Positions 12,551 through 53,642 of a DNA stretch of 64,000 nt are shown here, in pieces. Both the position numbers and the translations under genes were made by a program. The first letter of the stretch is position 1. The number at the start of each line of letters is the position of its first letter. The notes under the pieces are model-generated. The model was given only the letters and a program-made list of their open reading frames with translations. It had not been told where the DNA came from and ran no database searches. This DNA is from a phage: the sequence record PX645697.1. The stretch is one strand, 5' to 3'.

Positions 12551-12570
12551 GACCTAAGTCCTGCCTTCTA

Positions 12571-12579
12571 TAATGTATA
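12571..12579 (+). promoter_or_regulatory. TAATGTATA motif, candidate phage-specific promoter element
   Basis: Exact 9-mer recurring 35-60 nt upstream of start codons at four other sites; lies 38 nt upstream of the ATG at 12618. Confidence 0.35.
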
Positions 12580-12617
12580 TAGGGGGTAGGACATTTTTAT
12601 TTATAAAAGGAGACGTT

Positions 12618-15600
12618 ATGGCTAACATTAAACCGTGGGAAGAAGCTTCCAAAGCTCCTGCGTATCTGAATGCCTCTCCGGAGCAGCAAGCTCAAATGAG
12701 AGAACAATATAAGGCAGCAGGTGGCTCTATTCCTGAGGAACAGCCAGTAGCACAACCACAACAAGAAGAACGTGGTGTTATAGGTGAGTTTGCTCAAGGT
12801 GTGTCAAATGCTCTTCAATCTGGTGGTGCAAATATTGCAGCTAGTGCTGCTAAAGGTATTGGTGGTTTAGTTGAGATTGGTGAGAATCTAGCTGGAGCAC
12901 AGACTAGTTATGGTAAGCGTATCCAAGAGAACTCTCAGAACCTTCTGAAAGAACGTATGGATAAGATTGAGGATGGGATTGGCAAAACTGTCGGTCAGTA
13001 TGCTGGCGTTGCTGGTGATATCGGTTTGACAGTTGCTAACCCATTGGCTGCTGCTGCTATCATCGCAGGTCGTGAGACAGGTCGTGCATATGCAGACCAA
13101 ACCCCTGAAGAGGGGGAAGATAAGTCTATTCTAGATGCAGCCTTAGTTGGTGGTGCTAACTACGCGGCTATGAGAATCCTTCCGGGTGCTGTTGGTACAG
13201 CTGAGTCCACACTTGGACGTATTGGTCAGAACGTTGCTACTAACGCAGTGGCTGGTGCTAAGGGCGGGGCTCTTATAGGTGCTGCTGAAGCTCAGAACAA
13301 GTATGGTGATGACAATGATCTAGCTAAGACATTGGAAGGTGTTATCGAAGAAGGAGCTATGGGTGCTGCATTTGGTGGTGCAGTTGGTGGGGTTCATGGT
13401 TTGATTAGCCGTCCGGATTCTGCTGTCTTCAGGAATACTCCAGAGTATGCGAAGACTGATATTGCTGCTGATGATGAACTGATTCGTAGTGCTAAGAATA
13501 TTGATGAGCTGAAAGAGGCTTACTCTAAAGCTGAAACTGCTAACGCTGCTTCTGCTCTGAACCTTCTCGATGAGAATGGATTCCGTATTACAGATGCTGT
13601 TGCTGTAGATTCTCCTGCTGCTCAGCGTATTCTTAATACTGACCAAGCTCGTGCTGAGAAAGCTGCTTCTGTTCAGAAAGAACATTCCAACATTCCTGGC
13701 CTTAATCCTTTAGCTTCTCCTGCTAAAACTCGTGGTAAAGCTTTCGCTGATAATGAGCACAACCAGAAACAGGCTGTTGCTATGAAGGATGCAATGGCTG
13801 ACTACACCAAGGATAATACTAAAACTCTTACAGATGTTCTAGATAACCTAGACCGTGAATTAACATCTCTCCGAGCTTCTGGTGATTTTACCGGTAGTCC
13901 GATTGACATTAAGAACCGTACGCAAGCTGACCGTGATTTCATTGATGCTTACAAGACTTTCTACAATGAAGCAAATCGATTCAAAGCTCGTGATGGGGAA
14001 GACTTTAATAACTTTGTAGAGAAAGCTACTGAACTACAGAAGATGGCTGATAATGTTTCTCCAGAGATGAAGAAAGCTATTGGTGGGTTGAAGAAACTGA
14101 AAGGTATGCCTGAAGGTTTTAATCCTATCCAAGATGCTTACACTCTGAACAATACAGCTAAATTCATGAGCAACCAAGATCGTGGCTGGACTTCCCTGAC
14201 TGATGATGGCTTCCGTGAGGCTTCTTCACCTAGTCTGGTAATGAACACTCTTGGTGCTGCTAAATATGCTCTGAATCGCTTCTCTTCTCAGCGTGCTCGC
14301 TCTCAACGTGTTAAGCAACAAGAATCTAACAGTGAAGCTATCCGCTCTCTAGCTCGTGGTGATTTGGAAGTTGCTCGTGCTAAATCCGCTGCTGATGAAG
14401 CTCGCACTAAGATGGAAGAAGAACCAGCTGTTGATGACATTAATTTTAAGACGCAAAATGATGTGGAAACTGAACCGGTTCGGGAGCCTTCTTCTAGTAC
14501 TGTGACGGGAGAAAATCTTCCTTCTTCTGCTCCTCAAGAAGCTCCTCTTACAGCTCGTGATTTAGTTGCTCAAAGACGTGCTATCCGTCAGGCTGAACAG
14601 CGTCGCGCTGAAGAAGAGGCATTGGCTGCTCAAGAAGCTCCGGTTGAACAGGCTCCACAAGCTGAACCTCTCCCTGCTCGTAATCCTTTAGAGGAGCGTC
14701 GTGTATTAGAGCAGCAACGTGCTCAAGAAGAGGGCCAAAAGGCTTCATCAGAGGATGCATCTTCTGTTACTAAAGAATCTCTCTCTCACTATGCTGAAGA
14801 TGGGATACTTTCTCAAGATTTAAATGGCAACATTGCCCTTCGCCTAAATCAGTTCACCCCGGCTGAGCAACAGTTTTTGCGTAACCATAATTTGGTTGAC
14901 TCAAATGATATGGTCAAAGCTAGTTCTCTAAGACAAGCTGATCCATTACCTACCCGTGCCCCTAAAGCTCCTAAAGAAGAGGTACAGGACGTTAAACCGG
15001 CAAGTGGTGTAGAACGTTTAGCTGCTATGTCTAGTGCTGCTCGTCAGGCTACTAAAGATCGTGCAGAACGCTTTGCTCGTTCTCTGTACTCTAAGGCTGC
15101 TAAGGCTAAAGCTACTGCTGAGAACTTCTTGTCTTACAAGGGTGATCCTAAGGAGTTGATGCGTCGTATTCGTCAGGAAGATAATGCTATCAACACTGAA
15201 CGTCATGAAGAAATGGCTCGTAACCAGCTGGCTTCTCAGCAAGGTATTGCTACTGCTAAGAACAACACTGTACGAACTAACTTTGCTGAATGGGTTAAAG
15301 AACGTGGTCTGCCAGAAGACATTGCTACTAAGGCATTACGTGCTGAAGAGAAAGGTTTAGGTGGGAACGTAACTAACTTGGATAGTCTGAAACGTCGTGC
15401 TGAAAGGTTGTATCAGAAGCAGCGTGAAGATGAGTTTGATAGACTGTACCAACAAGCTCTAGAAGAGAATAAAGCTTTCGATAACAAGAATGCTCCTAAG
15501 CTGGTTGACCAGAAGAAAGAGTTTCAGTCTGAGATTGATACTTTGATTGATGCAGAACCTTTACGTCCTGCTCAGAAAGACGCTATGCGTAAATTGATGA

Positions 15601-24993: not shown

Positions 24994-25149
24994 AGTTCAG
25001 CAAGTTCTAAATAAAACTCAGCTTCATCAGGACGTCCTTGTTCATTACAGATGGCGCTCTGACGATAACACCAATCCGATGGCATCTCTTCCACTTCAAT
25101 CTCCTTGTTACGAACCAATCAATAAGAATAGTTCATTCGTCTTATTTAT

Positions 25150-25341
25150 TCACTCTACCAACGCAGGCACTTCTATCCTTTTAACTGTGAATGTCTTGTT
25201 TGGAAACTTTCGAACTAACTCTGCTGCTTTGGTTATTGCTAAGTTCTCTGTCTCAAAGATACACAGTTGACCATTTAATGCTACAAGAGTGGAGCCACCA
25301 CTGAAGATGGCCCAAGATTCATAATAACCTTTAACACTCAT
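25150..25341 (-). CDS. hypothetical protein
   Basis: Track ORF. Confidence 0.35.
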   Translation of the reverse strand: MSVKGYYESWAIFSGGSTLVALNGQLCIFETENLAITKAAELVRKFPNKTFTVKRIEVPALVE

Positions 25342-25349
25342 AATCTACC

Positions 25350-27194
25350 TTAGTGCGTATGCATCCAGTTGAGTCCAATCTGGCAATCAGAAGCCAGAGG
25401 ACATTCCATGTTCAAATACTCACCAGCTTTCTTAACACAAAGCTCGGTGTGTTCTTTGAGTTTCTGTACATCGTTACGGTTCACTGAGAACTGGCCCTCG
25501 TCGTGCATGTCAATTACTTTAGCACAACGAACTCCATCTTTCTCAATCCATTTGTTAAGGAACATCATAGCATATTTCATAACAACAGCACCAGCACATT
25601 GCAGGAGAGTGTTAAGGGCTTTATGAACCATAACCTTTCCAGTGGCATCCCGTCTCATTGTAATCTTACGACCATCAACTCCAATCAAGTATCCTTGAGC
25701 AGCCTTCTCTGTCATACGATCAATGAGGATTGCAATACATGGGTTCTCTGCCAAGAATCGTGCTCGCATCACTGAACCTTCGTCAGCCCCACCACCTACA
25801 ATCGAACCAAGCTTAGCATCACCAGCACCATAGTTGAATGCGTAGATAAACGTCTTAGCGTTGTCACGAGTAGGAAGACCAGCAAGTTTCTGGTTATGGG
25901 AGTGGATATCACCTTCAAGAAGAATATCACGATACATAATAGCAGAAGCTAAACCACGTTCTGCCAGAGCTTTCTTAGCTGGATTATTCTCTTCGATTGC
26001 TTCAGCAAGCATATCCCTACATTCTTTAATGAGGTAGTGTGCAAGCATACGCAACTCTAATCCAGAACCATCATACCCTAAGAATACTTCTTTACCAGCG
26101 GGTATGTAATATTTGTAAGCACCTACAGGTTTGTCTTTCTTCCCCGGCTTACCTTTCTCATAAATTACGTTAGTACCTTTTCGTATATAACAACCATCAG
26201 GAACAACGTTAGTAATAACGAAAGGACGAGAGTGATCAACATCTGAGTTATAGTCAGACTCAAACAAACCGCGACACTCATGACCAAACAAACCACGGGA
26301 GGGAATATTAACCACGATACGATGTTTGAATCGAAAAGTCGGCGTAGCGCAGCTGTTAGCTTCTGCCGAAAGTTTACCATCTTCGCGTTCCTTTGCTATG
26401 AGTCCACTGATAAGACCTAGCCTGTGAGCCGCTACAACGCGTCTCTTAAGCAAACTCCCGACACTCCCTAGCTCACCCCCTAACCCTTCTTCAAGAGTCT
26501 CCTCGAGGTTTGTAGGAGCTGTAGGCCACTTGTTTGAGGTAGCTAGTGCTATCTTAATCTCATCAAAAGTGATAGGTCTACGTCGGTTAGGGTTTAAACC
26601 TAAACCAAATACATAAGCCTTCATATAGTTCTTAGTCTTAAACCTAAAATGCTTCTCTAAGAACTTCCTAATATCAGCGTCAACCATCTCGGCTGTCTGC
26701 TTCTGTTTAGCATTACCTCGCATCCAAGCTGAATACCATGCTTGGTATGTTCCATACTTTCGCATATCTTTCTTGATTTCAAAAGTATTCCAAGGCTTCT
26801 TAGATACGTTAAACTCTGGAGGAAGAAAGCCCTCATCCATAAGGGCTTCTTTAACTCGTGCATCTTTCGATGGGTCAAAGTCCACGTATTCAACACAGGT
26901 GAATGCTCCACCAATGTCTTCTCTCTTAAGACCAACTCTATCACAATAGGCTTGAGGCCACTTCTGTAAAGCTCCAGACTTCTTAAATGGCTTCATATAA
27001 GTAGAGCCATCTAATCTCATCTTAGGTAAGAGAGGAATCAGTTCTTTGTCAATATTAACAATAATCTCTTTAAGGAGGTGAACATACCACCGAGCATTTC
27101 TTCGGTTGAAACTCACTCCGTGCTTCGCTTGCTTAGAGATTATATCAGCGACAGTCATCTCTGTCAAAAATGGGAGAGCGTCCGGGTTGCTCAC
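25350..27194 (-). CDS. DNA polymerase, family A, polymerase domain only
   Basis: Motif A GYDGSGLELRMLAHY, motif B RDNAKTFIYAFNYGAGDAKLG, motif C VIDMHDEGQF; no DEDD exonuclease motifs in N-terminal part. Confidence 0.8.
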   Translation of the reverse strand: MSNPDALPFLTEMTVADIISKQAKHGVSFNRRNARWYVHLLKEIIVNIDKELIPLLPKMRLDGSTYMKPFKKSGALQKWPQAYCDRVGLKREDIGGAFTCVEYVDFDPSKDARVKEALMDEGFLPPEFNVSKKPWNTFEIKKDMRKYGTYQAWYSAWMRGNAKQKQTAEMVDADIRKFLEKHFRFKTKNYMKAYVFGLGLNPNRRRPITFDEIKIALATSNKWPTAPTNLEETLEEGLGGELGSVGSLLKRRVVAAHRLGLISGLIAKEREDGKLSAEANSCATPTFRFKHRIVVNIPSRGLFGHECRGLFESDYNSDVDHSRPFVITNVVPDGCYIRKGTNVIYEKGKPGKKDKPVGAYKYYIPAGKEVFLGYDGSGLELRMLAHYLIKECRDMLAEAIEENNPAKKALAERGLASAIMYRDILLEGDIHSHNQKLAGLPTRDNAKTFIYAFNYGAGDAKLGSIVGGGADEGSVMRARFLAENPCIAILIDRMTEKAAQGYLIGVDGRKITMRRDATGKVMVHKALNTLLQCAGAVVMKYAMMFLNKWIEKDGVRCAKVIDMHDEGQFSVNRNDVQKLKEHTELCVKKAGEYLNMECPLASDCQIGLNWMHTH

Positions 27195-27210
27195 TTTATA
27201 CTCCTTTAAA

Positions 27211-27633
27211 TTATTGGTAAATCAAATCCGTAAATGCTTGATTGTCTTCTATCACATCTAACACGGTAGCTTCATAACTGTAAGCCCTAACCGCCCCGTT
27301 AACAACTATCCGAGGAGTAGGTGGAGGTGGTGCATGGTTAGCCCTAGCTTCACTAGGTTGCTCTCGTACTAGATGAGCCACAACCCTTTGGTTGGCGACC
27401 TCTTCTCTTTCTCGGATAGCTCTCTGGATGTAAGCCAACTTCATACCCCAAGCTTCTTCAAACTCTTGAGGGTGCTTATCACTGATAACCACATACTGAC
27501 GTTCAGGGGTACCAGAGCGAATCTCTGACAATAGTTCATGGAACAAATCCAGCTCATGTTCAGTGAGATTCATTTCGATATCATCCCACTTGAGAACTAG
27601 GAAACGGTTTTGATGTCTAGTCGGTAATGGCAT
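27211..27633 (-). CDS. hypothetical protein
   Basis: Track ORF. Confidence 0.35.
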   Translation of the reverse strand: MPLPTRHQNRFLVLKWDDIEMNLTEHELDLFHELLSEIRSGTPERQYVVISDKHPQEFEEAWGMKLAYIQRAIREREEVANQRVVAHLVREQPSEARANHAPPPPTPRIVVNGAVRAYSYEATVLDVIEDNQAFTDLIYQ

Positions 27634-27636
27634 AGC

Positions 27637-27921
27637 TTAACCTTTTGGGAATGGCATTAAAGATTCCATAGCAGTCTTAATTTCACTATTGATTCGTGAA
27701 TCACGGTAAGAGATAAACTTACCTTTGCTGTCACGTAACATCACATGGGTTCTGGATGTTTTGTGAGGGAGCAATGTGATACTGGTTGGGATAGTGTCAA
27801 CCCCTGCAAGATATGTGTCAATAGTCTTGCTTTCAGTCAACAGATAAGACCAAGTACGCGGTTTCTGCTCCGGGCGGTTGGGGTATGTGTCTCGAATCTG
27901 AACCATAGCTAACTTATTCAT
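27637..27921 (-). CDS. hypothetical protein, paralog of 27923..28174
   Basis: Shared C-terminal ...GKFISY...FPKG pattern. Confidence 0.4.
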   Translation of the reverse strand: MNKLAMVQIRDTYPNRPEQKPRTWSYLLTESKTIDTYLAGVDTIPTSITLLPHKTSRTHVMLRDSKGKFISYRDSRINSEIKTAMESLMPFPKG

Positions 27922-27922
27922 A

Positions 27923-28174
27923 TTAAACTCCTTTAGGGAATGGGATGAGGTTTTCTACTGCAACACGGAATTCTTTCTCTACATCTTTATTCTTGTAGGA
28001 AATGAACTTCCCATCAGCACCACGGAGGATTACGTTAGTACGAGCTGTTTTTGGATTATGACTAATCTGGTTTGCAATAATATTAGCAATGCCGTGGTTA
28101 TTGGTAAATTTCCATTTAACCATACGATTGTTAGACATTACATCAATGATATTTACAGATTTTACAATAGACAT
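27923..28174 (-). CDS. hypothetical protein, paralog of 27637..27921
   Basis: Shared C-terminal ...GKFISY...NLIPFPKG pattern. Confidence 0.4.
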   Translation of the reverse strand: MSIVKSVNIIDVMSNNRMVKWKFTNNHGIANIIANQISHNPKTARTNVILRGADGKFISYKNKDVEKEFRVAVENLIPFPKGV

Positions 28175-28208
28175 ATTTATTACCTAAGAAGTTTAATTTG
28201 GTTTATAT

Positions 28209-28237
28209 AAAAGAAAAGGCCACCCAAATGGGTAGCC
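28209..28237 (-). terminator. rho-independent terminator
   Basis: Minus-strand GGCUACCC-auuu-GGGUGGCC followed by UUUUCUUUU. Confidence 0.45.
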
Positions 28238-28242
28238 TCATA

Positions 28243-28566
28243 TTACGATGAGCTTAAAGCTCCTTTTCGCTTAGCAGCACCAGCCGCTTTTCCAGCTCGA
28301 TCACCACTTTTGCCGCCGTTTGAACGGTTTGAGCTGACTGATTCAACACGTAAGTTGCTTGACGCATTAGAGCCTCCAGACTTGACAGCTCGTTTGTGTC
28401 CAACATCTTTACCTCTGACAGCAGCTTTTCCATCGCGCTTTTCAACGATGCGACGTGCACGGTGGCGCTGAGCATCTCCGCTCTTGCTCCCAACGCCTGT
28501 CTCACCACGGGCAATTGCGGTACGTCTTTCTTGCGCATAATCTCTTTTTCCTACATGATCTGCCAT
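28243..28566 (-). CDS. small basic low-complexity protein (K/R/G/A/S-rich)
   Basis: AAGGAG 6 nt upstream of ATG 28566; TAATGTATA motif 36 nt upstream; terminator downstream. Confidence 0.45.
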   Translation of the reverse strand: MADHVGKRDYAQERRTAIARGETGVGSKSGDAQRHRARRIVEKRDGKAAVRGKDVGHKRAVKSGGSNASSNLRVESVSSNRSNGGKSGDRAGKAAGAAKRKGALSSS

Positions 28567-28602
28567 TTAGAACTCCTTAATATATCAGTGTACACTAAGG
28601 AG

Positions 28603-28611
28603 TATACATTA
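28603..28611 (-). promoter_or_regulatory. TAATGTATA motif (minus strand)
   Basis: Exact 9-mer 36 nt upstream of ATG 28566. Confidence 0.35.
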
Positions 28612-28620
28612 TGGATGCTA

Positions 28621-28809
28621 TTAAAACTCTGCTAAGTATTTAATATCAGAGGCATATACCTCATCAAAGGAAATAACTTCTCCATTGTAAAGAAGTTCTA
28701 TTTTCAGTATACCAGAGCATTTAGTGTCTTTAGAATCAACCCTGATAGAGAGCTTATCAACTATCTGAGCTTTAATCTCTTCTATTACCGACTCTTGAGT
28801 GTTATTCAC
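28621..28809 (-). CDS. hypothetical protein
   Basis: Track ORF 28621..28869 trimmed to GTG overlapping the upstream stop. Confidence 0.3.
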   Translation of the reverse strand: MNNTQESVIEEIKAQIVDKLSIRVDSKDTKCSGILKIELLYNGEVISFDEVYASDIKYLAEF

Positions 28810-28987
28810 TCCACCCTCCCGGTGGTACAAAATCATCAGGAACATCAATGATAGTAGGTTCTCCATCATTCATGCAGGTGTCTTCATTGAACTCTTCACA
28901 CTCAAAGCACGCTCGTTCGATATTTTTGTAGAAGTCGATGGTTGCTGAACCATCACCACAATCTCGGATAACTAGAGCTACTTTCAC
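28802..28987 (-). CDS. hypothetical Cys-containing acidic protein
   Basis: Track ORF. Confidence 0.3.
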   Translation of the reverse strand: MKVALVIRDCGDGSATIDFYKNIERACFECEEFNEDTCMNDGEPTIIDVPDDFVPPGGWSE

Positions 28988-29727
28988 TTCTCTTGTCCTT
29001 TTTCCATTGCTTTAACAATAGCTTTACAGAAACCAGAACGAACAATGTCATCTGATTCGCCATCTACTATCTCAGCGAACTCATACAGATCATGTTCATC
29101 AATAAAGTTAGTAGCCCAAGTAAGACCACTCTCACGACCACGCATATCATGCTGGTTAGTATCACCCATGCAGAACAGCTGAGAGGTCTCTCCCAATCGA
29201 GTCATGATTGAGAAGGCTTCATCTTTAGTGGTGTTCTGGAACTCATCTACGATAACAATAGCATCGTTGAAAGAACGACCACGGAGATACTCCAGAGGTA
29301 CGAACTCAATATTACTGTTACCGAGCTGGCATTCATAGAACCCTTTACCATATCGCTGAGTAATAACATCAATGATAGGCATCAAATATGGTTCAAACTT
29401 CTCACGCATCCCTCCCGGAAGCAACCCAAGAGAATTACCCATGCCGACCGAAGGGCGACTCAGGATAATCTTCTGAATCTTACCACTCTTCAGTGCATCG
29501 ATAACCGTGGAAGTGATTACAAAGGTCTTACCACAGCCCGCAGGAGCGTCTGTGAACACAACTTGTTTAGTCTTAATAGCATTGAGTAGCTCAGACTGAA
29601 ACTGGTTCTGAGGGACTACAGGCTTTGCTAAAACCACCTCTTCATACTCTCGCTTACCTTTACGAGTAACAAGTGCTTCCCGACGAAGGTCTTTCCGTGA
29701 TTCTTTCCGTGATTGACGACGACTCAT
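28984..29727 (-). CDS. phoH: PhoH-like ATPase
   Basis: Walker A DAPAGCGKTF and Walker B VIVDEFQN in PhoH-type arrangement. Confidence 0.7.
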   Translation of the reverse strand: MSRRQSRKESRKDLRREALVTRKGKREYEEVVLAKPVVPQNQFQSELLNAIKTKQVVFTDAPAGCGKTFVITSTVIDALKSGKIQKIILSRPSVGMGNSLGLLPGGMREKFEPYLMPIIDVITQRYGKGFYECQLGNSNIEFVPLEYLRGRSFNDAIVIVDEFQNTTKDEAFSIMTRLGETSQLFCMGDTNQHDMRGRESGLTWATNFIDEHDLYEFAEIVDGESDDIVRSGFCKAIVKAMEKGQEK

Positions 29728-29921
29728 TTACGCTCTCCAATTTCTTCGTAATGACACTCAGTGGTTAAACAATCTTTACAGATTGCTGTGTAAACCCTGA
29801 CGTTAGTAAATCGTTTGTTCTTCCCTTTGGTTGGAGAGCCTTTGGCAAGCTCTCTGATAACCTTGTTACTTAAATGAAGGTTTGTTCCTTCACATCTAGA
29901 GCACTTCACCACAATGTCCAT
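29724..29921 (-). CDS. small zinc-ribbon protein
   Basis: CSRCEG...CKDC Cys pairs. Confidence 0.35.
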   Translation of the reverse strand: MDIVVKCSRCEGTNLHLSNKVIRELAKGSPTKGKNKRFTNVRVYTAICKDCLTTECHYEEIGERK

Positions 29922-30106
29922 TCAGTAAGAGACCACAGAGAGTCACCTATGTGGGCATTGTCATTCCTGATGAGGTCTTTGATTTTATCAACATCAGTCA
30001 AGTGAGTCACATTCAAAATATCCTCAACATCCGGGGCATATTTAAATATGGCAACAATACTGTTGCGATCTTCAGCGTATCTTTCTAGAACATAAACTAC
30101 GCTCAT
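29906..30106 (-). CDS. hypothetical protein
   Basis: Track ORF. Confidence 0.35.
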   Translation of the reverse strand: MSVVYVLERYAEDRNSIVAIFKYAPDVEDILNVTHLTDVDKIKDLIRNDNAHIGDSLWSLTEWTLW

Positions 30107-30426
30107 GCGAAGTTAACCTCTTTATGAAGTCTGTAAACAGCCGTCGCCATACAAGCAACAGCTTCGTTATGTGGGAGATGCATCCCTGTAGAACCATCCC
30201 AATCTTTGAACTCATTGTCAAAGACTCCGGTAGGCTCTGGATACAAGGCTTGCAACTCAACCAAATCGTTAGCAACTTGTTGCCATTTATCATCAGACCA
30301 GATAGGGTCATCCAACCAGTAATACAAATAGGAATGGATGATCAATTGCCTTCTATGCCGATTGATTACTTCAGCGGGACTTATCTCACTTCCGTTTGAA
30401 GTCCTAAATGTATTACCGTCGATCAT
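30103..30426 (-). CDS. hypothetical protein
   Basis: Track ORF. Confidence 0.35.
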   Translation of the reverse strand: MIDGNTFRTSNGSEISPAEVINRHRRQLIIHSYLYYWLDDPIWSDDKWQQVANDLVELQALYPEPTGVFDNEFKDWDGSTGMHLPHNEAVACMATAVYRLHKEVNFA

Positions 30427-30629
30427 TATGAAAATTTCCGTTCTGTTAAAAAGTATATAACTTCATTATCTGGAGACCGAACTTTCTCTCCATTTACTAA
30501 TTTCTTAGCATCTTCATATGAAGTACAATCCAAAGCAGGGTTATCAGGTGTTGGCTTCCCTAGGAAATATTTCCAAGTCCAACGCTCTCCGTCATCGTCT
30601 TGGCAGTCAAGAGTCCACAAAGTTTTCAT
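30426..30629 (-). CDS. hypothetical protein
   Basis: Track ORF. Confidence 0.35.
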   Translation of the reverse strand: MKTLWTLDCQDDDGERWTWKYFLGKPTPDNPALDCTSYEDAKKLVNGEKVRSPDNEVIYFLTERKFS

Positions 30630-30811
30630 TTCACAACCTTAAATTTGAATGTTGTTGGGTGATAATAGTGCAACCTATTAATAGTGTGCTTTGTTTCAAG
30701 ATATATCCTACAGGAGTGGCACATAACATGAGACAAACTAGTCACAGGATTGGGCTTAAAATTGATGATAGGCTTCTCTTTCTTACAGAAGCTACAGACT
30801 TTCTTTTCCAT
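30626..30811 (-). CDS. small zinc-ribbon protein
   Basis: Trimmed to ATG 30811; CSFCKK...CHSCR. Confidence 0.3.
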   Translation of the reverse strand: MEKKVCSFCKKEKPIINFKPNPVTSLSHVMCHSCRIYLETKHTINRLHYYHPTTFKFKVVK

Positions 30812-31025
30812 CTTTTCTCCAGTGGTCAACGAACTGCTGAAACACTTTACGGTCAAATGTGAAATTACGAGCAATTCCGCATTCTCTAAAAGTGGCAGGC
30901 ATATAATCTACATCACCTTCAGATGTATGACCATAGACTTGAATAAGCTTCTTAATCTTATCCTTCTCTCTTCGAGGAAGCATTCTAAATGCCTCCTGAA
31001 TATCTGTAATATGTTTTATCTTCAT
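30792..31025 (-). CDS. hypothetical protein
   Basis: Track ORF. Confidence 0.35.
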   Translation of the reverse strand: MKIKHITDIQEAFRMLPRREKDKIKKLIQVYGHTSEGDVDYMPATFRECGIARNFTFDRKVFQQFVDHWRKDGKESL

Positions 31026-31037
31026 CAGAAATTCCTG

Positions 31038-31169
31038 CTAATCCTCTGAGTTGTGGGAACAGCAATATTCACATACTCCACAACAAGGGCAAATTTCTAC
31101 ACTTGGGTCATATGCATCATCAACTGTCATCCCACACTTGGTGCAGAACACATCATCATCTTCTTCCAA
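31038..31169 (-). CDS. candidate Cys-rich small protein, 43 aa (TTG start, not in track)
   Basis: Hand translation ...EEDDDVFCTKCGMTVDDAYDPSVEICPCCGVCEYCCSHNSED; begins 3 nt after thyX stop. Confidence 0.25.
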   Translation of the reverse strand: MEEDDDVFCTKCGMTVDDAYDPSVEICPCCGVCEYCCSHNSED

Positions 31170-31171
31170 TA

Positions 31172-31855
31172 TTAACTCTCCAAAGTTTTCTTCAGAGCTG
31201 CCCACGAGATTGGGTAGATCTTAGCCATCTCTTCGTCTACGGATTTAGCAAACACTCGAACTTCATATTGAGCGTGAGATGAGAGTCGCTGACGACACAG
31301 CTCAAACCAGCCATACAAAGAACCAGTCCACACCCACTCAGTGATCATCCCCTGAGGAAGAACAAATCGAGCTTGCTCTGGTGCAATAAATTCAATCAAC
31401 TTGTCATATGCTGCTAGAGAATCTTCATATGCATCGTTAATCAGCATTAATGCTTCATCTCGCTCTCCGTCGATGAGTTGAATCCCTGAACCTGCATGGA
31501 GGTCCGCAGGTCTCGCAAAAATCTCTTTAGGGATGAAGACTTCAACTGCTCCATCTTTATACCGCCGGGACATTTCGTTCCACGAGAATCCAACCTGATG
31601 CTTGCCCAACTGTCTCGCAATTGCGATAGGTGCTTTGCATCGGAAACTGACTTGTGGGTGTCGGAATGGAGTAACATGCTTCTCTCTTGCGAGGAAATTG
31701 ATGAGACGTTCATCACGTTCATTTAAATCACCTTCACGGGTTACACCAAAGGAAACTCGAGCTGCGTTTACTACAGTTTTATCCGAGCCTAAAAACTCTA
31801 CCAGTTCTGCTTTAAGCTGATCATTCATTACTTTTTCTCTCCATCCATGAAGCAA
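31172..31855 (-). CDS. thyX: flavin-dependent thymidylate synthase (ThyX)
   Basis: ThyX-type motif ARVSFG...FRHPQVSF...QRLSSHAQYEVR. Confidence 0.7.
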   Translation of the reverse strand: MLHGWREKVMNDQLKAELVEFLGSDKTVVNAARVSFGVTREGDLNERDERLINFLAREKHVTPFRHPQVSFRCKAPIAIARQLGKHQVGFSWNEMSRRYKDGAVEVFIPKEIFARPADLHAGSGIQLIDGERDEALMLINDAYEDSLAAYDKLIEFIAPEQARFVLPQGMITEWVWTGSLYGWFELCRQRLSSHAQYEVRVFAKSVDEEMAKIYPISWAALKKTLES

Positions 31856-32273
31856 GTTTTCTAACTTCCTCTATCGTTATATCACTTTTTAACCTATTTA
31901 CTCTTCTTGACAAAAAGGTCACATTCCCTTGAACGTACCCTTTGTCTGGAATAAATCTGTCAAGCTCAGCTAAGTCATCAGAACCTTTTTCACCATCTAT
32001 CTTTATAGGCGTATCTAATACCGGACAGAATCCAGTCCAAATAGACTCTAGATACTCAGGAGTTAAATCAAAAGGTACGTTATCCCTTTTTGCTTTTATT
32101 TTAGTTCTGACATTCTTTAATTTAAAAGGTTGTGTCCTTTTATATTTTAGATATCTAGCTCTTTGACTTTCGTTGGCGCAAGAATAACAATAAGGCCGTA
32201 ACCTACCAGACCTATCATTACGCACAGGAAATTGATCTATGTCCAAATCCTTTTCACAGGAATTACAGATCAT
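31821..32273 (-). CDS. zinc-finger protein, possibly degenerate HNH-like nuclease
   Basis: N-terminal CNSC...CYSC; C-terminal IPDKGYVQGNVTFLSRRVNRLK. Confidence 0.3.
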   Translation of the reverse strand: MICNSCEKDLDIDQFPVRNDRSGRLRPYCYSCANESQRARYLKYKRTQPFKLKNVRTKIKAKRDNVPFDLTPEYLESIWTGFCPVLDTPIKIDGEKGSDDLAELDRFIPDKGYVQGNVTFLSRRVNRLKSDITIEEVRKLASWMERKSNE

Positions 32274-32338
32274 CGATCGCTTCCCATAGCTTCGATTAAT
32301 GTTGCTTGTAATTGTTCATTCATCCGTGAATTTCCCTA

Positions 32339-32539
32339 TTAATATTCTTTTACACAATAAACCACTAAGGTTCCTTGATCTGTTAATATTGACTTATGTA
32401 AGCTGACATTACTATAAAACTTTGGAGCTATCTTAAGGGCTTTCTTAAAACGACGAGCTTCTTTACGAGTAGCAAAGTGCTCTGTTACAGGAACTTTGTC
32501 GTTGTGTAGATAGTAAACTACTGTCCAATATTTTTTCAT
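32339..32539 (-). CDS. small protein, member of KEARR-KK paralog family
   Basis: MKKYW...TRKEARRFKK shared with four ORFs at 34.4-35.5 kb. Confidence 0.4.
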   Translation of the reverse strand: MKKYWTVVYYLHNDKVPVTEHFATRKEARRFKKALKIAPKFYSNVSLHKSILTDQGTLVVYCVKEY

Positions 32540-32814
32540 AATTTAATACCCAAAGCAGTTACTAAGAAAGCTTTCAGGTTTGCTTCGGTCTGCATACCAG
32601 ATAAGCTATAATGTGCATCGCTGTTACGATTAGGCACAACGAAAGCAGGGATACTTCGTACACCATACTTAACAGCTTGTTCACGACCATCACCTTCAAG
32701 GATGTTAATCTCTTCTACTTCTACATCAAACTCCTTAACAACCTTCTCAAAGGTAGGAGCCATTGCTTTACATGGAGCACACTGATCACTATAAAACTTA
32801 ATTACTTTACTCAT
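32536..32814 (-). CDS. thioredoxin/glutaredoxin-like protein
   Basis: CAPC active-site motif in thioredoxin-fold context (KFYSDQCAPCKAMAP...IPAFVV); start trimmed to ATG 32814. Confidence 0.55.
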   Translation of the reverse strand: MSKVIKFYSDQCAPCKAMAPTFEKVVKEFDVEVEEINILEGDGREQAVKYGVRSIPAFVVPNRNSDAHYSLSGMQTEANLKAFLVTALGIKL

Positions 32815-33004
32815 TCTATTCCTTGTTAATAAACAGGTTGATATGACGCTGGGTAGCAGGAACAACAATAAAAGATTTATACTGACCTTTTGCTAGGTCA
32901 TGAGCAATCTTCTTTGTCTGACCAAGACCCATCACACAGCCACTAACGATAATGGCATGTGCTTGTAATTCTTCAGGTAGGTTTAGTTTCACTCTTTGGA
33001 TTCC

Positions 33005-33190
33005 TTATAGCATACAAAGAATAATAACAAGAGGTAGTGTTATAGCAAAATGTACCAGAACAACACTACCTAGCTTGATAGCTTTAACATCCTCTTCTGC
33101 TGGGTTTTCTTTAATTGCTAAATTTCGAGCTTTATATATAACAGTACCAACTATTAACGACCACACGGCCCACACAATCAGTGAAATCAT
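33005..33190 (-). CDS. small two-TM membrane protein
   Basis: Track ORF; MISLIVWAVWSLIVGTVIY... paralogous to the adjacent untracked ORF. Confidence 0.45.
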   Translation of the reverse strand: MISLIVWAVWSLIVGTVIYKARNLAIKENPAEEDVKAIKLGSVVLVHFAITLPLVIILCML

Positions 33191-33199
33191 ATCAAATCC

Positions 33200-33379
33200 T
33201 TATGCAGTCAGGAGGTGAAGCAGGAATGGGATAACAACAGCTACGATAACCATGATAGTTGATGCTGTTTGAATCTCACCTTTCTTATCAGGGGTTTCTT
33301 CAATAAGCTTACCAGAAGCCCAATAAATACCACCACCAATAAAGATAGCCCAAATACCCCATACGATTGCTGATAACAT
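33200..33379 (-). CDS. small two-TM membrane protein, 59 aa (not in track), paralog of 33005..33190
   Basis: Hand translation MLSAIVWGIWAIFIGGGIYWASGKLIEETPDKKGEIQTASTIMVIVAVVIPFLLHLLTA. Confidence 0.45.
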   Translation of the reverse strand: MLSAIVWGIWAIFIGGGIYWASGKLIEETPDKKGEIQTASTIMVIVAVVIPFLLHLLTA

Positions 33380-33440
33380 ATATCTATATCCTTATAAATA
33401 AGTTCGCCCCACCTCGGGTTAGGAGACAGGGCGGAGGTTT

Positions 33441-34040
33441 TTAGTAAGACACATCACCACTTGAGTGGGACATGTTGCTCTTGACAAAGTAGCAATACTT
33501 GCCAAGACCTTCATTAATTTCTTGAAGCATACTCTGATCAACTGGATAAGTGACTAAATCACCATCAAACTCATCCATCTTCTCAATAATACACAACAAG
33601 GTCATGCACATATCAGAGAGCATTCCATCCATGTCTAGATCAGCATTACCCTCTGAGAACCAAGCATGAGAGAGGTAGTTAGCTGCTGTAGCGTCCACTT
33701 TAACACAGTGGTAACGCATACGTTCAGCAATACGATCTCCTACCTGTCGTGCGTAATCTTCCAGCTCGTCAAACATACCATGAACACCCTGAAATCCTGC
33801 ACCAGAGACGTTCCAGTGGTAGTTTTTAGCTTTAATATGCAAGAGTTCCATGTTAGCTTGTAAGCAGCTTAGGATGTGTTCTAGGTTGTTTCCGCTAATC
33901 ATGCCCTGCATAGTTTCAAGGCGAGAGATTGAAAGCTCAGATCGGTCTAACATGTTATATTCTGCACGACCGATTTCAGGTAAATCAAAGACATTCTTAT
34001 GCATTTGGGTTATCTCCATCAAGTTCAACTGAATTAGCAA
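33441..34040 (-). CDS. Dps-like / ferritin-like protein
   Basis: KNYHWNVSGAGFQGVHGMFDE...DRIAERMRY matches the Dps ferroxidase-region pattern HWN..G..F..VH.M.D....AER. Confidence 0.5.
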   Translation of the reverse strand: MLIQLNLMEITQMHKNVFDLPEIGRAEYNMLDRSELSISRLETMQGMISGNNLEHILSCLQANMELLHIKAKNYHWNVSGAGFQGVHGMFDELEDYARQVGDRIAERMRYHCVKVDATAANYLSHAWFSEGNADLDMDGMLSDMCMTLLCIIEKMDEFDGDLVTYPVDQSMLQEINEGLGKYCYFVKSNMSHSSGDVSY

Positions 34041-34398: not shown

Positions 34399-34608
34399 TC
34401 AGTAGTAAATTACTTTAGACATAAAAGAACCAGTGTTAGGGTCTTCATACCAGCGATGTATGTCAGCGCTTTTTACTATTGTGCCCAGAGTCTTCAACTG
34501 TTTCTTAGCAATACGAGCCTCTTTGCGAGTGTCAAACAATTTGATGCTATCTTTTCTCATATGTTGCTCAAGATCCCAAACAACATGAATAGCCCACATC
34601 TTTTTCAT
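34399..34608 (-). CDS. small protein, KEARR-KK paralog family
   Basis: MKKMW...TRKEARIAKK...VIYY. Confidence 0.45.
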   Translation of the reverse strand: MKKMWAIHVVWDLEQHMRKDSIKLFDTRKEARIAKKQLKTLGTIVKSADIHRWYEDPNTGSFMSKVIYY

Positions 34609-34823
34609 TAGTAATGTACCTTTCCGCTGATATAAATACGGCCTGAGGTATACTCATAGCCCTTGAGAATCTTAATAGAGATAAGATATCCAGTGTGTAA
34701 TTCACTGAACGATTTCTTAAGCCTACGTGCATCTTCTCGTGTTTTCTGGTAGGCCATGGTCACCCCCCCACTTGTCCACTCTGTCTTAACTAACCAAATT
34801 CTTTTCATAAGACCTGCCCTCAT
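34608..34823 (-). CDS. small protein, KEARR-KK paralog family
   Basis: ...TREDARRLKK...KVHY. Confidence 0.45.
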   Translation of the reverse strand: MRAGLMKRIWLVKTEWTSGGVTMAYQKTREDARRLKKSFSELHTGYLISIKILKGYEYTSGRIYISGKVHY

Positions 34824-35035
34824 TAGTAGTACACCTTGCTTCCAGCCATGAACGCCCCTGTCGAGCTTATCATGGCTTTGCTGATAGTAACTTTCTTACA
34901 CCGTAAACATACCTTCCAGTTCTTTTTACAGATTCGAGCTTCTTGTCGAGTGTTACAAAAAATAGCCGAAGATATTTCTTGGGTGTTGTTATCATAAACA
35001 CGAACACACCACTTTTTCATTGTTCCAAACTCCAC
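34823..35035 (-). CDS. small protein, KEARR-KK paralog family
   Basis: ...TRQEARICKK...KVYY. Confidence 0.45.
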   Translation of the reverse strand: MEFGTMKKWCVRVYDNNTQEISSAIFCNTRQEARICKKNWKVCLRCKKVTISKAMISSTGAFMAGSKVYY

Positions 35036-35226
35036 TATCTGTCAACCGATTCAGGGACAAACTGCATTACACAGACCTGATTACGAGGAAGGTTTATTTC
35101 ACAAGCGGTTTTTCTATCAGCAACCTTAGATGACGAGTTAGGGCCAATTTGAGCCATCATTAATCCCATAGCTAACATGCCGAGGATTACACCAATTGCT
35201 AGAGATGCTACAGTTTCTTGTTTCAT
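35035..35226 (-). CDS. small membrane protein
   Basis: Hydrophobic segment ASLAIGVILGMLAMGLMMAQI. Confidence 0.35.
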   Translation of the reverse strand: MKQETVASLAIGVILGMLAMGLMMAQIGPNSSSKVADRKTACEINLPRNQVCVMQFVPESVDR

Positions 35227-35241
35227 ATCGGATACACTCTA

Positions 35242-35490
35242 TCAGTAATATATCTTTTCATTGATAACCAAAGTGTCGTAATTCTCTGTCTGAGAGTGGA
35301 CCGCTTTGTGAATAGTAGCTACTACATCAACAGCATCTTTAAAGCGTCGATAATGGTTTATGGTTACTTTTTTGAGACGTCTAGCCTCCTCTCTTGAGGG
35401 AAGCTGAGTTTTTAGAACAGTGATTTTACCTGTTGAAATCTTGGTAATCACAACTTTCAGTGCCCAACAATCCAGAGCAGCCTTTTTCAT
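35242..35490 (-). CDS. small protein, KEARR-KK paralog family
   Basis: ...SREEARRLKK...KIYY. Confidence 0.45.
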   Translation of the reverse strand: MKKAALDCWALKVVITKISTGKITVLKTQLPSREEARRLKKVTINHYRRFKDAVDVVATIHKAVHSQTENYDTLVINEKIYY

Positions 35491-35693: not shown

Positions 35694-36227
35694 TTACACA
35701 CCTTTAGATGCAACTACACCTTCAGAGTTATTATAACGACCCTTCACTGCATAGGAATGTTCCCCTGCATGAGAGTGCTCAAACATCACCATCTGACCAA
35801 CACGCATACCAGCACGAACTCGTAAGCTATGATGCTTGGTTACGTTATGGAACTCAAATGTCAGCTTACTGCTGTTAAACCCTGCGTCTGCCCACCCGGC
35901 GTGGAGGTGGTTCAAACCACAACGAGCCATAGATGAACGTAGGACAAACAGACTTGAGATGTTATCTGGAAGATTAAACTCCTCCATGGAGTGAGCCAAG
36001 AAGAACTGACCCGGAGTGATAACCAAACCCTCTTCAGGAATCTTTACTTCCTTCCACTGAAGATTCTCTTTCGCATCAATATCAACGATGCCATCAGCCT
36101 GTTCTTCAACAAGGATAGTATCACCAATACGGATATCCACACTAGCAGCGTTAACATATTTATGCTCCGCATTCAGATAGCCATTGTCAATTACATCGTG
36201 CAGTTCAATACTTCCTAGTAAACTCAT
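35694..36227 (-). CDS. dcd: dCTP deaminase / dUTPase-family protein
   Basis: VDIRIGD...PGQFFLAHSMEEFNLPDN...LRSSMARCGL...AGWADAGF pattern of Dcd family. Confidence 0.65.
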   Translation of the reverse strand: MSLLGSIELHDVIDNGYLNAEHKYVNAASVDIRIGDTILVEEQADGIVDIDAKENLQWKEVKIPEEGLVITPGQFFLAHSMEEFNLPDNISSLFVLRSSMARCGLNHLHAGWADAGFNSSKLTFEFHNVTKHHSLRVRAGMRVGQMVMFEHSHAGEHSYAVKGRYNNSEGVVASKGV

Positions 36228-36236
36228 TCTTATTCC

Positions 36237-37583
36237 TTAGTTATTTGTTTCTACGTCAAAAGAGATTCCACGACCCGCCTCATCGGCAAACCGAACTGTA
36301 CGGGTTTGAGGTTCTAATATTTCAGGGTTGTCAGCAACAAAGCGATCAGCGAGATTCTGGTTGACGGTCTCAGCAAGCTCCTCATGAGAAGGAACATCAA
36401 GACTACCTACCACATCTTGGGAAGAAGCTTCATCAGTCCAGATAACCCGAGCAGGAACAGCAAAACCCTGACCAGAGAGCTGACGTGCACTAACGTTGAA
36501 GCCATTTGGACGACCACGAGAAGGACTAGACATCCATCTCTCCATAGAATCACTTGTGATACCAAGAGCTTCTTCAAAAGATGTTCTACGAGTAGGGCTT
36601 TCTCTTCGTGACTCTTGTGCTCGACGCATTGCAGGGGCTACAAACACCCCTTCAATTGCATTGTGTCGGTTAGGTTCCTCTTCTCGACCAAGCAGATCAC
36701 CACCCGTGTTAGTCGTTAAATTTGTCAACCCCTCAGACCAATACGCATGAATCTGACCAGAACCGTGAAGACTAGACATAATCTGAATCTCTTCATAAGG
36801 GATTCCAAAGAATAGACTCATGTCTCGGTTAACACAATACTGAGCACTTGTTGTATCTTCAATAAGAGAAACCTGACCTAATCCATTAACCAGATGGCTA
36901 ACTGGCTGAGGTGTAGGAAGGTATCGAGTTTGGGCCATATATTGATATGCAACAGATGGAGCTGAGAATCTTAACACTTGTGAATTAGGCCACTTTTTGT
37001 GAACGTATCTGATTTCACGACTAGAAACAACCACAGGACAAGGAGAGGTCATAGCTAAATATCCATGAGGGGTCATGAATAAGTTATCAAGAGTCATCGC
37101 ACCACGGCACATCATAGGAAAATTATCCAACACCTCCTCAATAGAAGTAGGATAGTTAAACATGAATTGAATGCGGGTTCCATTCCACTGAAATTCAATA
37201 ATATCAGTGAATGTTAATTGAGAGTTCCCAGCATAGGATTCGTTTGTAGATTCAGCAAGAAGAGATGAATATTCAATATCTTGTGACTCAAGCCACTCCT
37301 TAACGTTGCTTTCAACCTCTCTTCCAAGATCTTGCCACTGATCATGGCGGACGAAAGTGTTTTGGGTTCTTGGTGTTTGTCCTCTGACAATAAAGATATC
37401 AATGTCATGTGGAGCTATATTGTTAAGGACAGCATCACGAATAGCCCCACCAGTAATGATGGGACAGATACCGTCTGGAATCAAGTTGTTGTTAATCAAC
37501 TGTTCAATGAAGTGACGACCAACAGTGATATCAGGTTGTTGAGCAACCTTATCTTCAATTTGGTTAATCGGGATAACAATCAT
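36237..37583 (-). CDS. Pol-beta-superfamily nucleotidyltransferase (CCA-adding / poly(A)-polymerase-like head) with low-complexity C-terminus
   Basis: ITGGAIRDAVLNNIAPHDIDIFIV matches the GG-x-RD...DxD head motif; start set at ATG 37583 just after exonuclease stop. Confidence 0.4.
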   Translation of the reverse strand: MIVIPINQIEDKVAQQPDITVGRHFIEQLINNNLIPDGICPIITGGAIRDAVLNNIAPHDIDIFIVRGQTPRTQNTFVRHDQWQDLGREVESNVKEWLESQDIEYSSLLAESTNESYAGNSQLTFTDIIEFQWNGTRIQFMFNYPTSIEEVLDNFPMMCRGAMTLDNLFMTPHGYLAMTSPCPVVVSSREIRYVHKKWPNSQVLRFSAPSVAYQYMAQTRYLPTPQPVSHLVNGLGQVSLIEDTTSAQYCVNRDMSLFFGIPYEEIQIMSSLHGSGQIHAYWSEGLTNLTTNTGGDLLGREEEPNRHNAIEGVFVAPAMRRAQESRRESPTRRTSFEEALGITSDSMERWMSSPSRGRPNGFNVSARQLSGQGFAVPARVIWTDEASSQDVVGSLDVPSHEELAETVNQNLADRFVADNPEILEPQTRTVRFADEAGRGISFDVETNN

Positions 37584-37584
37584 T

Positions 37585-38142
37585 TTACATTTTCCAATAT
37601 AATGAAGGTGGGTCGTAAGGGTCAAATCCCGTGAGTTCACACAAGAAAAGATAAACCTTAACAGTTAAGTTAACGTCCTGTTCACAATAAGTAAACATAT
37701 CTTCAGTGAAAGCATCCCATGCTTCCTCTTGCTCACCGTAATCTCCTTTAAGTTCCTCTAAGAACTCACCCCATTGCTTCAAGCCGTGACCTCTTGGGCC
37801 ACGTCTAGGGTCGCCTTTCGGATACTCAGGACTGTCACCAATACGGTCAGGTTTAAGATATCGACTAAGACAGAGAGTGTCAAAGACGTTAAAACGATAG
37901 TTGATCAGATTGGGATACATCTTCTTCAGAGCACAAAGGTCGAAGTCAATAATATTATGACCTACGAGCACATCAGCTTCTGTAAGTTTACGAATCCCAT
38001 CTTCAATTTGGTGAGGCCGATAGCCCCACCTTTCACCAGTTTCAACATCGAAGATGTAAATACACCATACTTTAGTTATGTCATCGTACAGTGCATTACT
38101 CTCGATATCGAATGCAAATACTTTCTTCTTTTTCTTTACCAC
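37585..38142 (-). CDS. DEDD-type 3'-5' exonuclease (DnaQ-like), stand-alone
   Basis: Exo [11 protein letters not shown], Exo [13 protein letters not shown], Exo III FTYCEQD. Confidence 0.6.
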
Positions 38143-53543: not shown

Positions 53544-53642
53544 CTCTCATTCAATTTGGCGCACCGTGGAGGATTCTAACCTCCAACCAATTTCTTAGAA
53601 GGAAACTGCTCTATACAATTGAGCTAACGGCGCTGGATTTGT

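Follow-up and report, generated by a model that had tools for sequence, protein, structure and literature searches.

Gad2 is a 400-amino-acid (aa) anti-Gabija protein of Bacillus phage SPbetaL7 for which AlphaFold predicts a nucleotidyltransferase domain. Knockout of its gene leaves this phage susceptible to Gabija, and a Gad2 homologue supplied in trans cancels Gabija, the SPbetaL7 gene being toxic on expression. A transferase adjoining the primase/helicase in a T7-like Pseudomonas putida phage is also described, in a preprint, as being toxic upon overexpression and as having homologues annotated “Gad2 family.” Here, we describe a transferase gene (36237..37583; 448 aa plus stop, ATG at 37583, TAA at 36237-36239) on the minus strand (marked “−” below) of a 64,000-nucleotide stretch of phage DNA (record PX645697.1; referred to throughout as the window). 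By megablast and tblastn, the window was assigned to the genus Kuravirus (Gordonclarkvirinae), within the phiEco32/SU10 group of prolate Escherichia coli podophages. From profile comparisons we conclude that the Kuravirus enzyme, Gad2 proteins, and the small transferases of phiKMV-type phages make up a single clade of class-II-like head domains specific to phages, and we tentatively favor, with slightly less than even confidence, a role for this enzyme as a Gad2-like counter-defense protein that is fixed in the replication operon and protects phage replication. Annotation of the gene as a nucleotidyltransferase, in some records with a “class II CCA-adding enzyme domain,” is already known, and the gene has been pointed out in print. 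New here are the finding that, of the features of CCA enzymes, only motif A and the fold are retained, an invariant glutamine in the active site, the remote kinship to Gad2 and phiKMV-type transferases, and the combination of a tiny family, rigid synteny, and a lineage-specific tail.

The first 272 residues (36768..37583, −) constitute a folded nucleotidyltransferase core in which N-terminal helices are followed by a class-II-like head, then by a short neck-like part, and finally by a pair of C-terminal helices. A preliminary description of this locus, made from the sequence alone, had proposed a Pol-beta-type nucleotidyltransferase carrying a GG-x-RD...DxD head motif, and both membership in the superfamily and the presence of the motif are supported. 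Motif A, ITGGAIRDAVLNNIAPHDIDIFI (aa 43 to 65; 37389..37457, −), comprises the GG turn, the pair R49-D50, and two metal-binding aspartates, D60 and D62. It is not a chance occurrence: its six key residues are invariant in an alignment of 28 sequences that includes homologues down to 23% identity, in which the full set of invariant positions comprises G45, G46, R49, D50, D60, D62, F64, I128, and Q139. Nearly invariant in the same alignment are W97, L108, Y117, M141, P156, Y193, and K197, and position 127 is always Asp or Glu. D60 and D62 align with D21 and D23 of the E. coli CCA-adding enzyme, which settles in the affirmative whether the aspartates of the motif fall on catalytic positions, a check named in the preliminary description.

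AlphaFold2 (AF2) modeling of residues 1 to 270 with 28 diverse sequences gave a predicted local distance difference test score (pLDDT) of 87 and a predicted template modeling (TM) score of 0.84; when the full-length protein was modeled from a shallow alignment, the pLDDT was 48 and the core was poorly modeled. In the core model, helices are followed by a strand (39 to 44), a helix (46 to 53), a strand (61 to 67), a long helix (80 to 100), a short strand, the two strands of a hairpin (125 to 133 and 136 to 146), and then small strands and helices up to residue 270. The top 38 matches of this model in a Foldseek comparison with PDB were all class II enzymes, with query-normalized TM scores of only 0.33 to 0.45, as expected if the head alone matches. 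In another fold comparison, with which the Foldseek result agrees, TENT5 (8.4), CD-NTases (7.5), Pol X (∼7), and MenT (5.9) came after the leading matches. The transferase has the head-domain fold of class II CCA/poly(A) enzymes. The hallmarks of CD-NTase/cGAS-like enzymes and of phage cGAMP-making nucleotidyltransferases (Ho et al.), namely, GS...SDxD, NP-x-hh[DE], and a match to defense-cyclase profiles, were not found, nor were the palm plus fingers, thumb, and 8-kDa domains and the GSxRRG...DxD motif of DNA polymerase X/terminal transferase.

A precomputed Pfam column for Kuravirus homologues carries PF26128, labeled “Gad2 (faint).” To evaluate kinship with Gad2, a profile was built from Gad2 and eight homologues listed in the supplementary tables of the Gad2 paper. 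Alignment of the family core with the Gad2 N-terminal domain by hhalign gave a probability of 93.6% (E = 2e-7; score, 52.5; 101 columns); the maximum score of 30 column-shuffled controls was 20.8 and that of the reversed profile was 22.2, and the same query scored 31 against CCA/PcnB and 32 against gp16 of Pseudomonas phage LKD16. The alignment pairs motif A with IIAGGAITSLFNNKEINDVDIYF of Gad2, the Gln-containing strand of the transferase with that of Gad2, and FPMMCRGA with FDFTVCMGA. In a test set of 630 sequences, a Gad2 hidden Markov model (HMM) recovered nearly all family members at E values of 1e-7 to ∼0.06, with the first decoy at ∼0.4 and one weak member at 0.46; the reciprocal family HMM found all nine Gad2 sequences (3e-6 to 0.09) ahead of PcnB (0.3), CCA (1.1), and decoys. 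The profile phrog_1614 acts as a hub that matches the transferase (6e-8), Gad2 (8e-6), two Gad2 homologues (2e-8 and 6e-8), LKD16 gp16 (1e-39), and distant family members. The best non-orthologous structural matches among viral models were “poly(A) polymerase head domain” proteins of 167 to 230 aa from Autographiviridae (including LKD16, LIMEzero, phiAS7, PP2, and Cd1). The Gad2 alignment covers residues 41 to 171 of the query (to 197 at low stringency), and no counterpart of the Gad2 C-terminal region (approximately residues 200 to 400) was found in the transferase, BLAST likewise giving no match within the tail. PDB holds no deposited Gad2 structure, and PDB sequence searches with the transferase gave only chance or motif A matches. 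PADLOC and NCBIfam gave no informative match, NCBIfam being without a Gad2 model. Based on these comparisons, we conclude that the Kuravirus family is most plausibly a separate branch of the Gad2-containing clade and not a member of Pfam Gad2.

The active site itself shows an unusual feature. A beta-hairpin, FTDIIEFQWNGTRIQFMFNYPT (aa 125 to 146; 37146..37211, −; strands 125 to 133 and 136 to 146), carries the always acidic D127 and the invariant I128 and Q139. Q139, in the strand TRIQFMF, matches the Gln of the “hQhh” strand of Gad2 in the hhalign alignment, and judging by pattern, spacing, and strand register, it appears to occupy the place of the third carboxylate of Pol-beta enzymes. At this place LKD16 gp16 has Asp (VDLLL), and Glu is found in a Streptococcus suis Gad2 homologue (LELI) and in PcnB/CCA enzymes (IEVATF/EYALA), these Asp/Glu equivalences being drawn from pattern and spacing only and the Gln-Gln match from hhalign. 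The substitution, together with the presence of nucleotidyltransferase-fold pseudoenzymes such as MiD49 among the fold matches, is what speaks for a noncatalytic protein in which the fold has turned into a nucleotide-binding regulator or a scaffold of the replisome. We consider this extremely improbable: G45, G46, R49, D50, D60, and D62 are strictly invariant over deep divergence, from which we infer that metal and triphosphate chemistry has been retained, and the acidic residue at position 127 might stand in for the missing carboxylate.

Beyond motif A, similarity to CCA-adding enzymes and poly(A) polymerases fades rapidly. Profile searches, proposed in the preliminary description as a check, gave a divided answer. 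Two PHROG profiles annotated as nucleotidyltransferase matched the transferase, phrog_12715 at E = 2e-247 (1 to 448 of 457 profile positions) and phrog_1614 at E = 6e-8 (residues 36 to 155; P0066, 5e-9), whereas the Pfam PolyA_pol head (PF01743) scored 19.1 bits (E = 0.0017), under its 23-bit cutoff, with homologues at 13 to 20 bits. A PDB profile search returned CCA enzymes at E = 0.37 over 22 residues only, and hhalign of the family profile against the CCA enzyme and PcnB of E. coli MG1655 aligned only the 24 to 25 residues of motif A. An extended hhalign solution that paired WLED..SLL with LEDDLKRRD was rejected because it contradicts the strand order of the AF2 model. Of the class II signatures, motif A (GGxxRD...DxD) is present as GGAIRD...DIDIF at aa 45 to 64. 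At the place of motif B lies SIEEVLDNFPMMCRGAM (aa 147 to 163; 37095..37145, −), which lacks the RRD of the class II motif RRDFTINA and aligns with Gad2 FDFTVCMGA, itself aligned with RRDLTINALA of the E. coli CCA enzyme. F155 is conserved here in most members and P156 is nearly invariant, and the equivalent segment, LDNFPMMCRGAM, has no family-wide Arg-Arg-Asp across the 28 sequences, so that the motif B element for recognition of the ribose 2′-OH is missing. The helix SREIRYVHKKWP (aa 188 to 199; 36987..37022, −; helix 188 to 197) is the counterpart of RxxRF, the second half of motif D, but does not contain EDxxR, the amino acid template for CTP/ATP. Across the family its consensus reads R-[DE]-x-x-Y-x-x-[KR]-K-x-P, with Y193 and K197 nearly invariant, and it aligns with Gad2 RVQKY, itself aligned with RVARF of CCA enzymes, at low stringency and with low confidence. 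The equivalences for motifs B and D are transitive, obtained by hhalign through Gad2 together with the order of secondary structure elements and not from coordinates, and an equivalence of R-D-x-x-Y with E-D-x-x-R found no support in the transitive alignment. The body and tail domains that bind tRNA or an RNA primer were not found in the transferase. The preliminary assignment to the CCA-adding/poly(A) type thus stands for motif A and the head fold; it does not stand for RRD, EDxxR, the body/tail domains, or full-length similarity, and among profiles the closest relative is Gad2 rather than a cellular tRNA enzyme. These sequence features do not support a complete enzyme of the CCA-adding or poly(A) polymerase type.

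The same features bear on an idea already raised in the preliminary description, whether the enzyme repairs tRNA 3′ ends, by CCA addition or partial restoration of CCA, and so counters host nucleases or transferases that damage acceptor ends. Both motif A and the head fold belong to the class II CCA type, OLD-family Toprim nucleases (GajA family) are reported to cut tRNAs, and in the Klebsiella myophage KpS8 a Gad2 homologue lies directly after an array of 15 tRNAs and an endonuclease VII gene. However, the folded part of the transferase amounts to ∼270 aa, of which 140 to 166 align with CCA enzymes, without body and tail domains; RRD and EDxxR, which underlie CCA and ATP/CTP selection, are absent; the Pfam match lies under threshold; and the host has its own CCA enzyme. 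The preliminary description had recognized no tRNA genes in the window, which proved wrong: ARAGORN and Rfam both identified a tRNA-Arg(UCU) at 53557-53633 (−) (GCGCCGT...ACGGTGC-G-CCA), the sole match of the Rfam scan. Its 3′ CCA is encoded in the DNA, so it needs no CCA addition, and 14 of the 15 KpS8 tRNAs likewise encode CCA; CCA addition to phage tRNAs was accordingly rejected. Phages of the phiKMV type that carry a related transferase are, to our knowledge, generally devoid of tRNAs. Repair of tRNA is therefore a very unlikely function, and it should not be read into the annotation “class II CCA-adding enzyme domain.”

Behind the core lies a C-terminal tail (aa 273 to 448; 36240..36767, −) that is predicted to be disordered, abounds in indels, and resists alignment between genera. 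Its description as Ser/Arg/Glu-rich and disordered holds (from aa ∼271 to 448, Ser 10.1%, Glu 10.1%, Arg 9.6%, Gly 8.4%, and Ala 8.4%, with a net charge of −10; AF2 pLDDT of <50 across residues 269 to 448), but the poorly ordered region spans ∼178 residues instead of 150, and “low-complexity” was too strong a term: its entropy is 3.95 bits, compared with 4.18 for the core, and it contains no repeats. Within Kuravirus, whole blocks of the tail have been gained or lost as in-frame indels, and between genera it diverges. Ratios of nonsynonymous to synonymous divergence (dN/dS) in ten Kuravirus genomes were ∼0.1 to 0.2 for the core and 0.3 to 0.5 for the tail, which is fast evolving yet under purifying selection. 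Two conserved islands stand out. The C-terminal 37 residues, ADRFVADNPEILEPQTRTVRFADEAGRGISFDVETNN (36240..36350, −), are nearly invariant among Kuravirus homologues, with dN of 0.042 and dS of 0.09 over the last 30 codons. Closer to the core, W282 of WSEGL (aa 282 to 286; 36726..36740, −) is invariant across four genera, and the corresponding pattern, aromatic-[ST]-x-G-[LR], occurs at a fixed distance past the core, ∼88 to 90 residues past YxxKK, in 9 of 19 members with a recognizable anchor, compared with 2.0 expected from shuffles. In approximately half of the family the tail is absent or short, many members having an extension of just 60 to 100 aa, and no extra gene fills the gap at these loci, which argues that the tail is a lineage-specific extension and not a fused gene. 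Fast evolution, indels, and dN/dS below 1 are as expected for an interaction region, and the features of the tail fit a flexible one.

Synonymous divergence among ten Kuravirus genomes was very low over the 30 codons at either end of the gene (37494-37583 at the start and 36240-36330 at the end; dS of 0.055 and 0.09, respectively, compared with 0.3 to 0.8 elsewhere), which may reflect translational coupling or ribosome-binding-site constraint at both gene junctions. Low synonymous divergence within the tail in three genomes had hinted at an overlapping element; with ten genomes there was no sign of one, because dS of neighboring genes varies as much.

The Arg- and Ser-rich character of the tail also raises the alternative of RNA 3′-end tailing, in which a minimal poly(A)/poly(N) polymerase marks host or phage RNAs for decay or stabilization and the disordered tail replaces the RNA-binding C-terminal region of PcnB. 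PcnB likewise ends in a basic region of low order, and the Kuravirus protein is expressed early. Nevertheless, the tail is net acidic (−10) rather than basic, many family members carry an extension of no more than 60 to 100 aa, RRD (the sensor of the ribose 2′-OH) and the templating residues of the neck are missing, and similarity to PcnB is insignificant outside motif A. We regard RNA tailing as unlikely.

To establish the distribution of the family, residues 1 to 230 were searched with HMMER against 1.84 billion cluster representatives (E up to 1e-3). Only 33 proteins were found, confined to phages and falling into two length classes (274 to 321 aa and 395 to 482 aa), and a second, word-indexed search with the profile yielded no further homologues. 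The gene in the window is orthologous to gp73 of phiEco32 (phi32_73, “hypothetical protein”) and gp74 of SU10 (“nucleotidyltransferase”), its product being 80 to 91% identical across ∼70 Kuravirus genomes and the surrounding 5-kb region 93 to 96% identical to SU10, VTCCBPA_211, 172-1, NJ01, and others. A longer reading frame starting at GTG (to 37640) overlaps the upstream gene and was not preferred, because all homologues begin MI.IP. As first described, the gene lies between an exonuclease and a dCTP deaminase. Upstream is a family-A DNA polymerase 3′-5′ exonuclease subunit (37585..38142, −; PF01612, E = 4.5e-8; phrog_403), preceded by a T7-type primase/helicase two genes upstream of the transferase (38136..39926, −; phrog_239, E = 1e-175). 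Downstream is the dCTP deaminase (35694..36227, −; PF22769, E = 3.7e-34; TIGR02274, 107.8 bits with a cutoff of 92.8). A single base separates the TAA stop of the exonuclease gene from the ATG of the transferase gene (junction ...AAAATGTAAAATGATT), and a scan for promoters and terminators around the transferase gene found nothing beyond chance.

This order is conserved well beyond the genus. It is identical in Nieuwekanaalvirus and Suseptimavirus and in every annotated phage genome examined, the primase/helicase being part of the conserved block in all relatives. Five metagenomic relatives were looked up, one on a contig too short to show neighbors; on the other four (24 to 28% identity), the transferase again lies between the exonuclease subunit and the dCTP deaminase, in the order gamma-glutamyl cyclotransferase (GGACT), primase/helicase, exonuclease subunit, transferase, dCTP deaminase, and then thioredoxin and ThyX. 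Given this rigid synteny across genera and metagenomic relatives, the transferase gene belongs to the core gene set of phiEco32-like phages.

Such a fixed position speaks for an accessory of replication or nucleotide metabolism that cooperates either with the split T7-like replisome or with the pathway of dCTP deaminase and ThyX; the enzyme might extend DNA 3′ ends, primers, or nicks with nucleotides or might contribute to a covalent modification of DNA. The place between exonuclease subunit and dCTP deaminase, downstream of the primase/helicase, is strictly kept in all genera, the transferase starts 1 base past the exonuclease stop, its small analogue in phiKMV-like phages is flanked by helicase and DNA ligase genes (as is LKD16 gp16, in the replication module), and loss of RRD would permit use of deoxynucleoside triphosphates (dNTPs). 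Sites for EcoRI, EcoRV, and EcoKI are present although such phages resist these enzymes, and the authors of the BASEL collection suggested that dCTP deaminase and transferase together make a DNA modification such as deoxyuridine (dU). ThyX (31172-31855) and thioredoxin are, however, also encoded in the window and, with dCTP deaminase, make up an ordinary pathway of dTTP supply; ThyX weakens the idea of dU-DNA, which is thus unlikely. We know of no DNA hypermodification pathway that employs a Pol-beta-fold transferase of this kind, and phage gene order reflects timing as much as function. On balance, a replication or nucleotide-metabolism role is rather unlikely.

Across the whole window (1-64000), there are 7 EcoRI, 28 EcoRV, and 7 EcoKI sites, so site avoidance cannot explain resistance to these three enzymes. 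Other sites are depleted: CCWGG occurs 3 times (∼73 expected), GATC 146 times (304 expected), and PstI sites are absent (11.5 expected).

We return to the tentatively favored Gad2-like role in counter-defense, for which the invariant active-site motif, the kinship with Gad2, the requirement for Gad2 in escape from Gabija together with its toxicity, the tiny phage-only family, early expression, and a tail that evolves fast at dN/dS below 1 count. In SU10, gp74 was seen by mass spectrometry (1 peptide in the SU10 proteomics), and the authors' map places its gene within the sigma-70 early region; according to the BASEL study, Gordonclarkvirinae are remarkably resistant to restriction systems and host nucleases by no known mechanism. 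In the mechanism we envisage, aa 1 to 272 of this early, two-part Kuravirus protein are predicted to be a catalytically competent, if atypical, Pol-beta-fold nucleotidyltransferase. It would bind nucleoside triphosphate (NTP) and Mg2+ through G45-G46, R49-D50, D60, and D62 and then pass the nucleotide to an acceptor hydroxyl, for which candidates are a nucleotide, a host protein, or the 3′ end of a nucleic acid. The enzyme has shed the parts that define a CCA enzyme (the ribose-sensing RRD, the templating EDxxR, and a body and tail that bind tRNA), and the flexible, fast-evolving tail (aa 273 to 448), with its short conserved islands, may tether or target the enzyme. Nucleotidyl transfer would shield replicating phage DNA or the nucleotide pool from host nuclease defenses of the Gabija/OLD type.

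Several points weigh against this role. Anti-defense genes are usually accessory and mobile, and the strongest counterargument is that the transferase is a fixed core gene rather than a mobile anti-defense gene; the rigid synteny of exonuclease, transferase, and dCTP deaminase down to 24 to 28% identity fits a housekeeping role in replication or nucleotide metabolism. With Gln in place of the third carboxylate, an assignment made from sequence patterns and strand register, catalysis could be weak or altered. Identity to Gad2 is ∼20% and limited to the transferase core, so that function need not be conserved, and the PF26128 match of Kuravirus homologues is a faint one. The mechanism of Gad2 has not been elucidated according to a 2026 review, which leaves “works like Gad2” mechanistically thin. 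No published Gabija test of these phages was found in the literature, the BASEL panel having reported restriction-modification systems and Fun/Z, not Gabija.

A broader and quite unlikely extension is that Gad2-type transferases are a general enzymatic route by which phages blunt nuclease immunity, acting through nucleotidylated DNA ends or nicks or through a nucleotide-derived inhibitor, with the Kuravirus enzyme as a core-gene form that accounts for both kinds of nuclease resistance. If true, it would explain the resistance of Gordonclarkvirinae to restriction enzymes despite the presence of sites, as well as resistance to Gabija/OLD-type nucleases, and the DxD-plus-Gln active site would mark a new type of reaction within the Pol-beta superfamily. 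The transferase is in any case a candidate for the nuclease resistance of phages that carry restriction sites, and the link between Gad2, the small transferases of podophages, and a Kuravirus core gene offers a tractable system in E. coli K-12 (BASEL phages Bas89-94) for identifying what these enzymes transfer and to which acceptors.

Other features of the region are worth recording. The family-A DNA polymerase is split, its 3′-5′ exonuclease being a separate 185-aa gene (37585-38142, −) adjoining the primase/helicase; in SU10, the gene for the polymerase domain lies ∼9 kb further downstream of the exonuclease subunit (SU10 locus 12084-13928). Just downstream of the dCTP deaminase, at 34399-35490 (−), are four tandem paralogous open reading frames of 66 to 82 aa (32 to 42% identity) that share a C-terminal W...TR-E-AR..KK...K-[VI]-x-Y-Y. 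A GGACT gene is located at 40146-40565 (−), and upstream of GGACT in SU10 (locus 25124-33498) is a cluster of ATP-grasp, amidoligase, glutamine amidotransferase, and COOH-NH2 ligase genes; together, GGACT and this cluster look like a system that modifies peptides or metabolites.

Compared with known systems, the transferase shares with class II CCA/PcnB enzymes (PF01743) a motif A whose catalytic DxD aligns, and differs from them in lacking RRD, EDxxR, and the body and tail domains and in having Gln at the putative third-carboxylate position. With the Autographiviridae transferases (phrog_1614) it has in common a head-only architecture, GGAxRD...PxDIDxxF, and a location near the primase/helicase; those proteins are tailless, at 167 to 230 aa, LKD16 gp16 has Asp at the place of Gln139, and profile similarity to the Kuravirus enzyme extends over only ∼41 columns (probability of 43%). 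Like Gad2, the transferase is phage encoded, has a core with AGGA...ND(V/I)D(I/V)(Y/F)F, the “hQhh” Gln strand, and an F(D/P)xxxCxGA segment, and carries a variable C-terminal extension behind that core. In contrast, the family has GGA-I/V-RD, as do CCA enzymes, where most Gad2 proteins have GGA-I-TS, and a disordered tail takes the place of Gad2 residues ∼200 to 400. Finally, whereas Gad2 belongs to a variable anti-Gabija locus of SPbeta-like phages, the Kuravirus transferase is a core gene with a fixed place in the replication operon.

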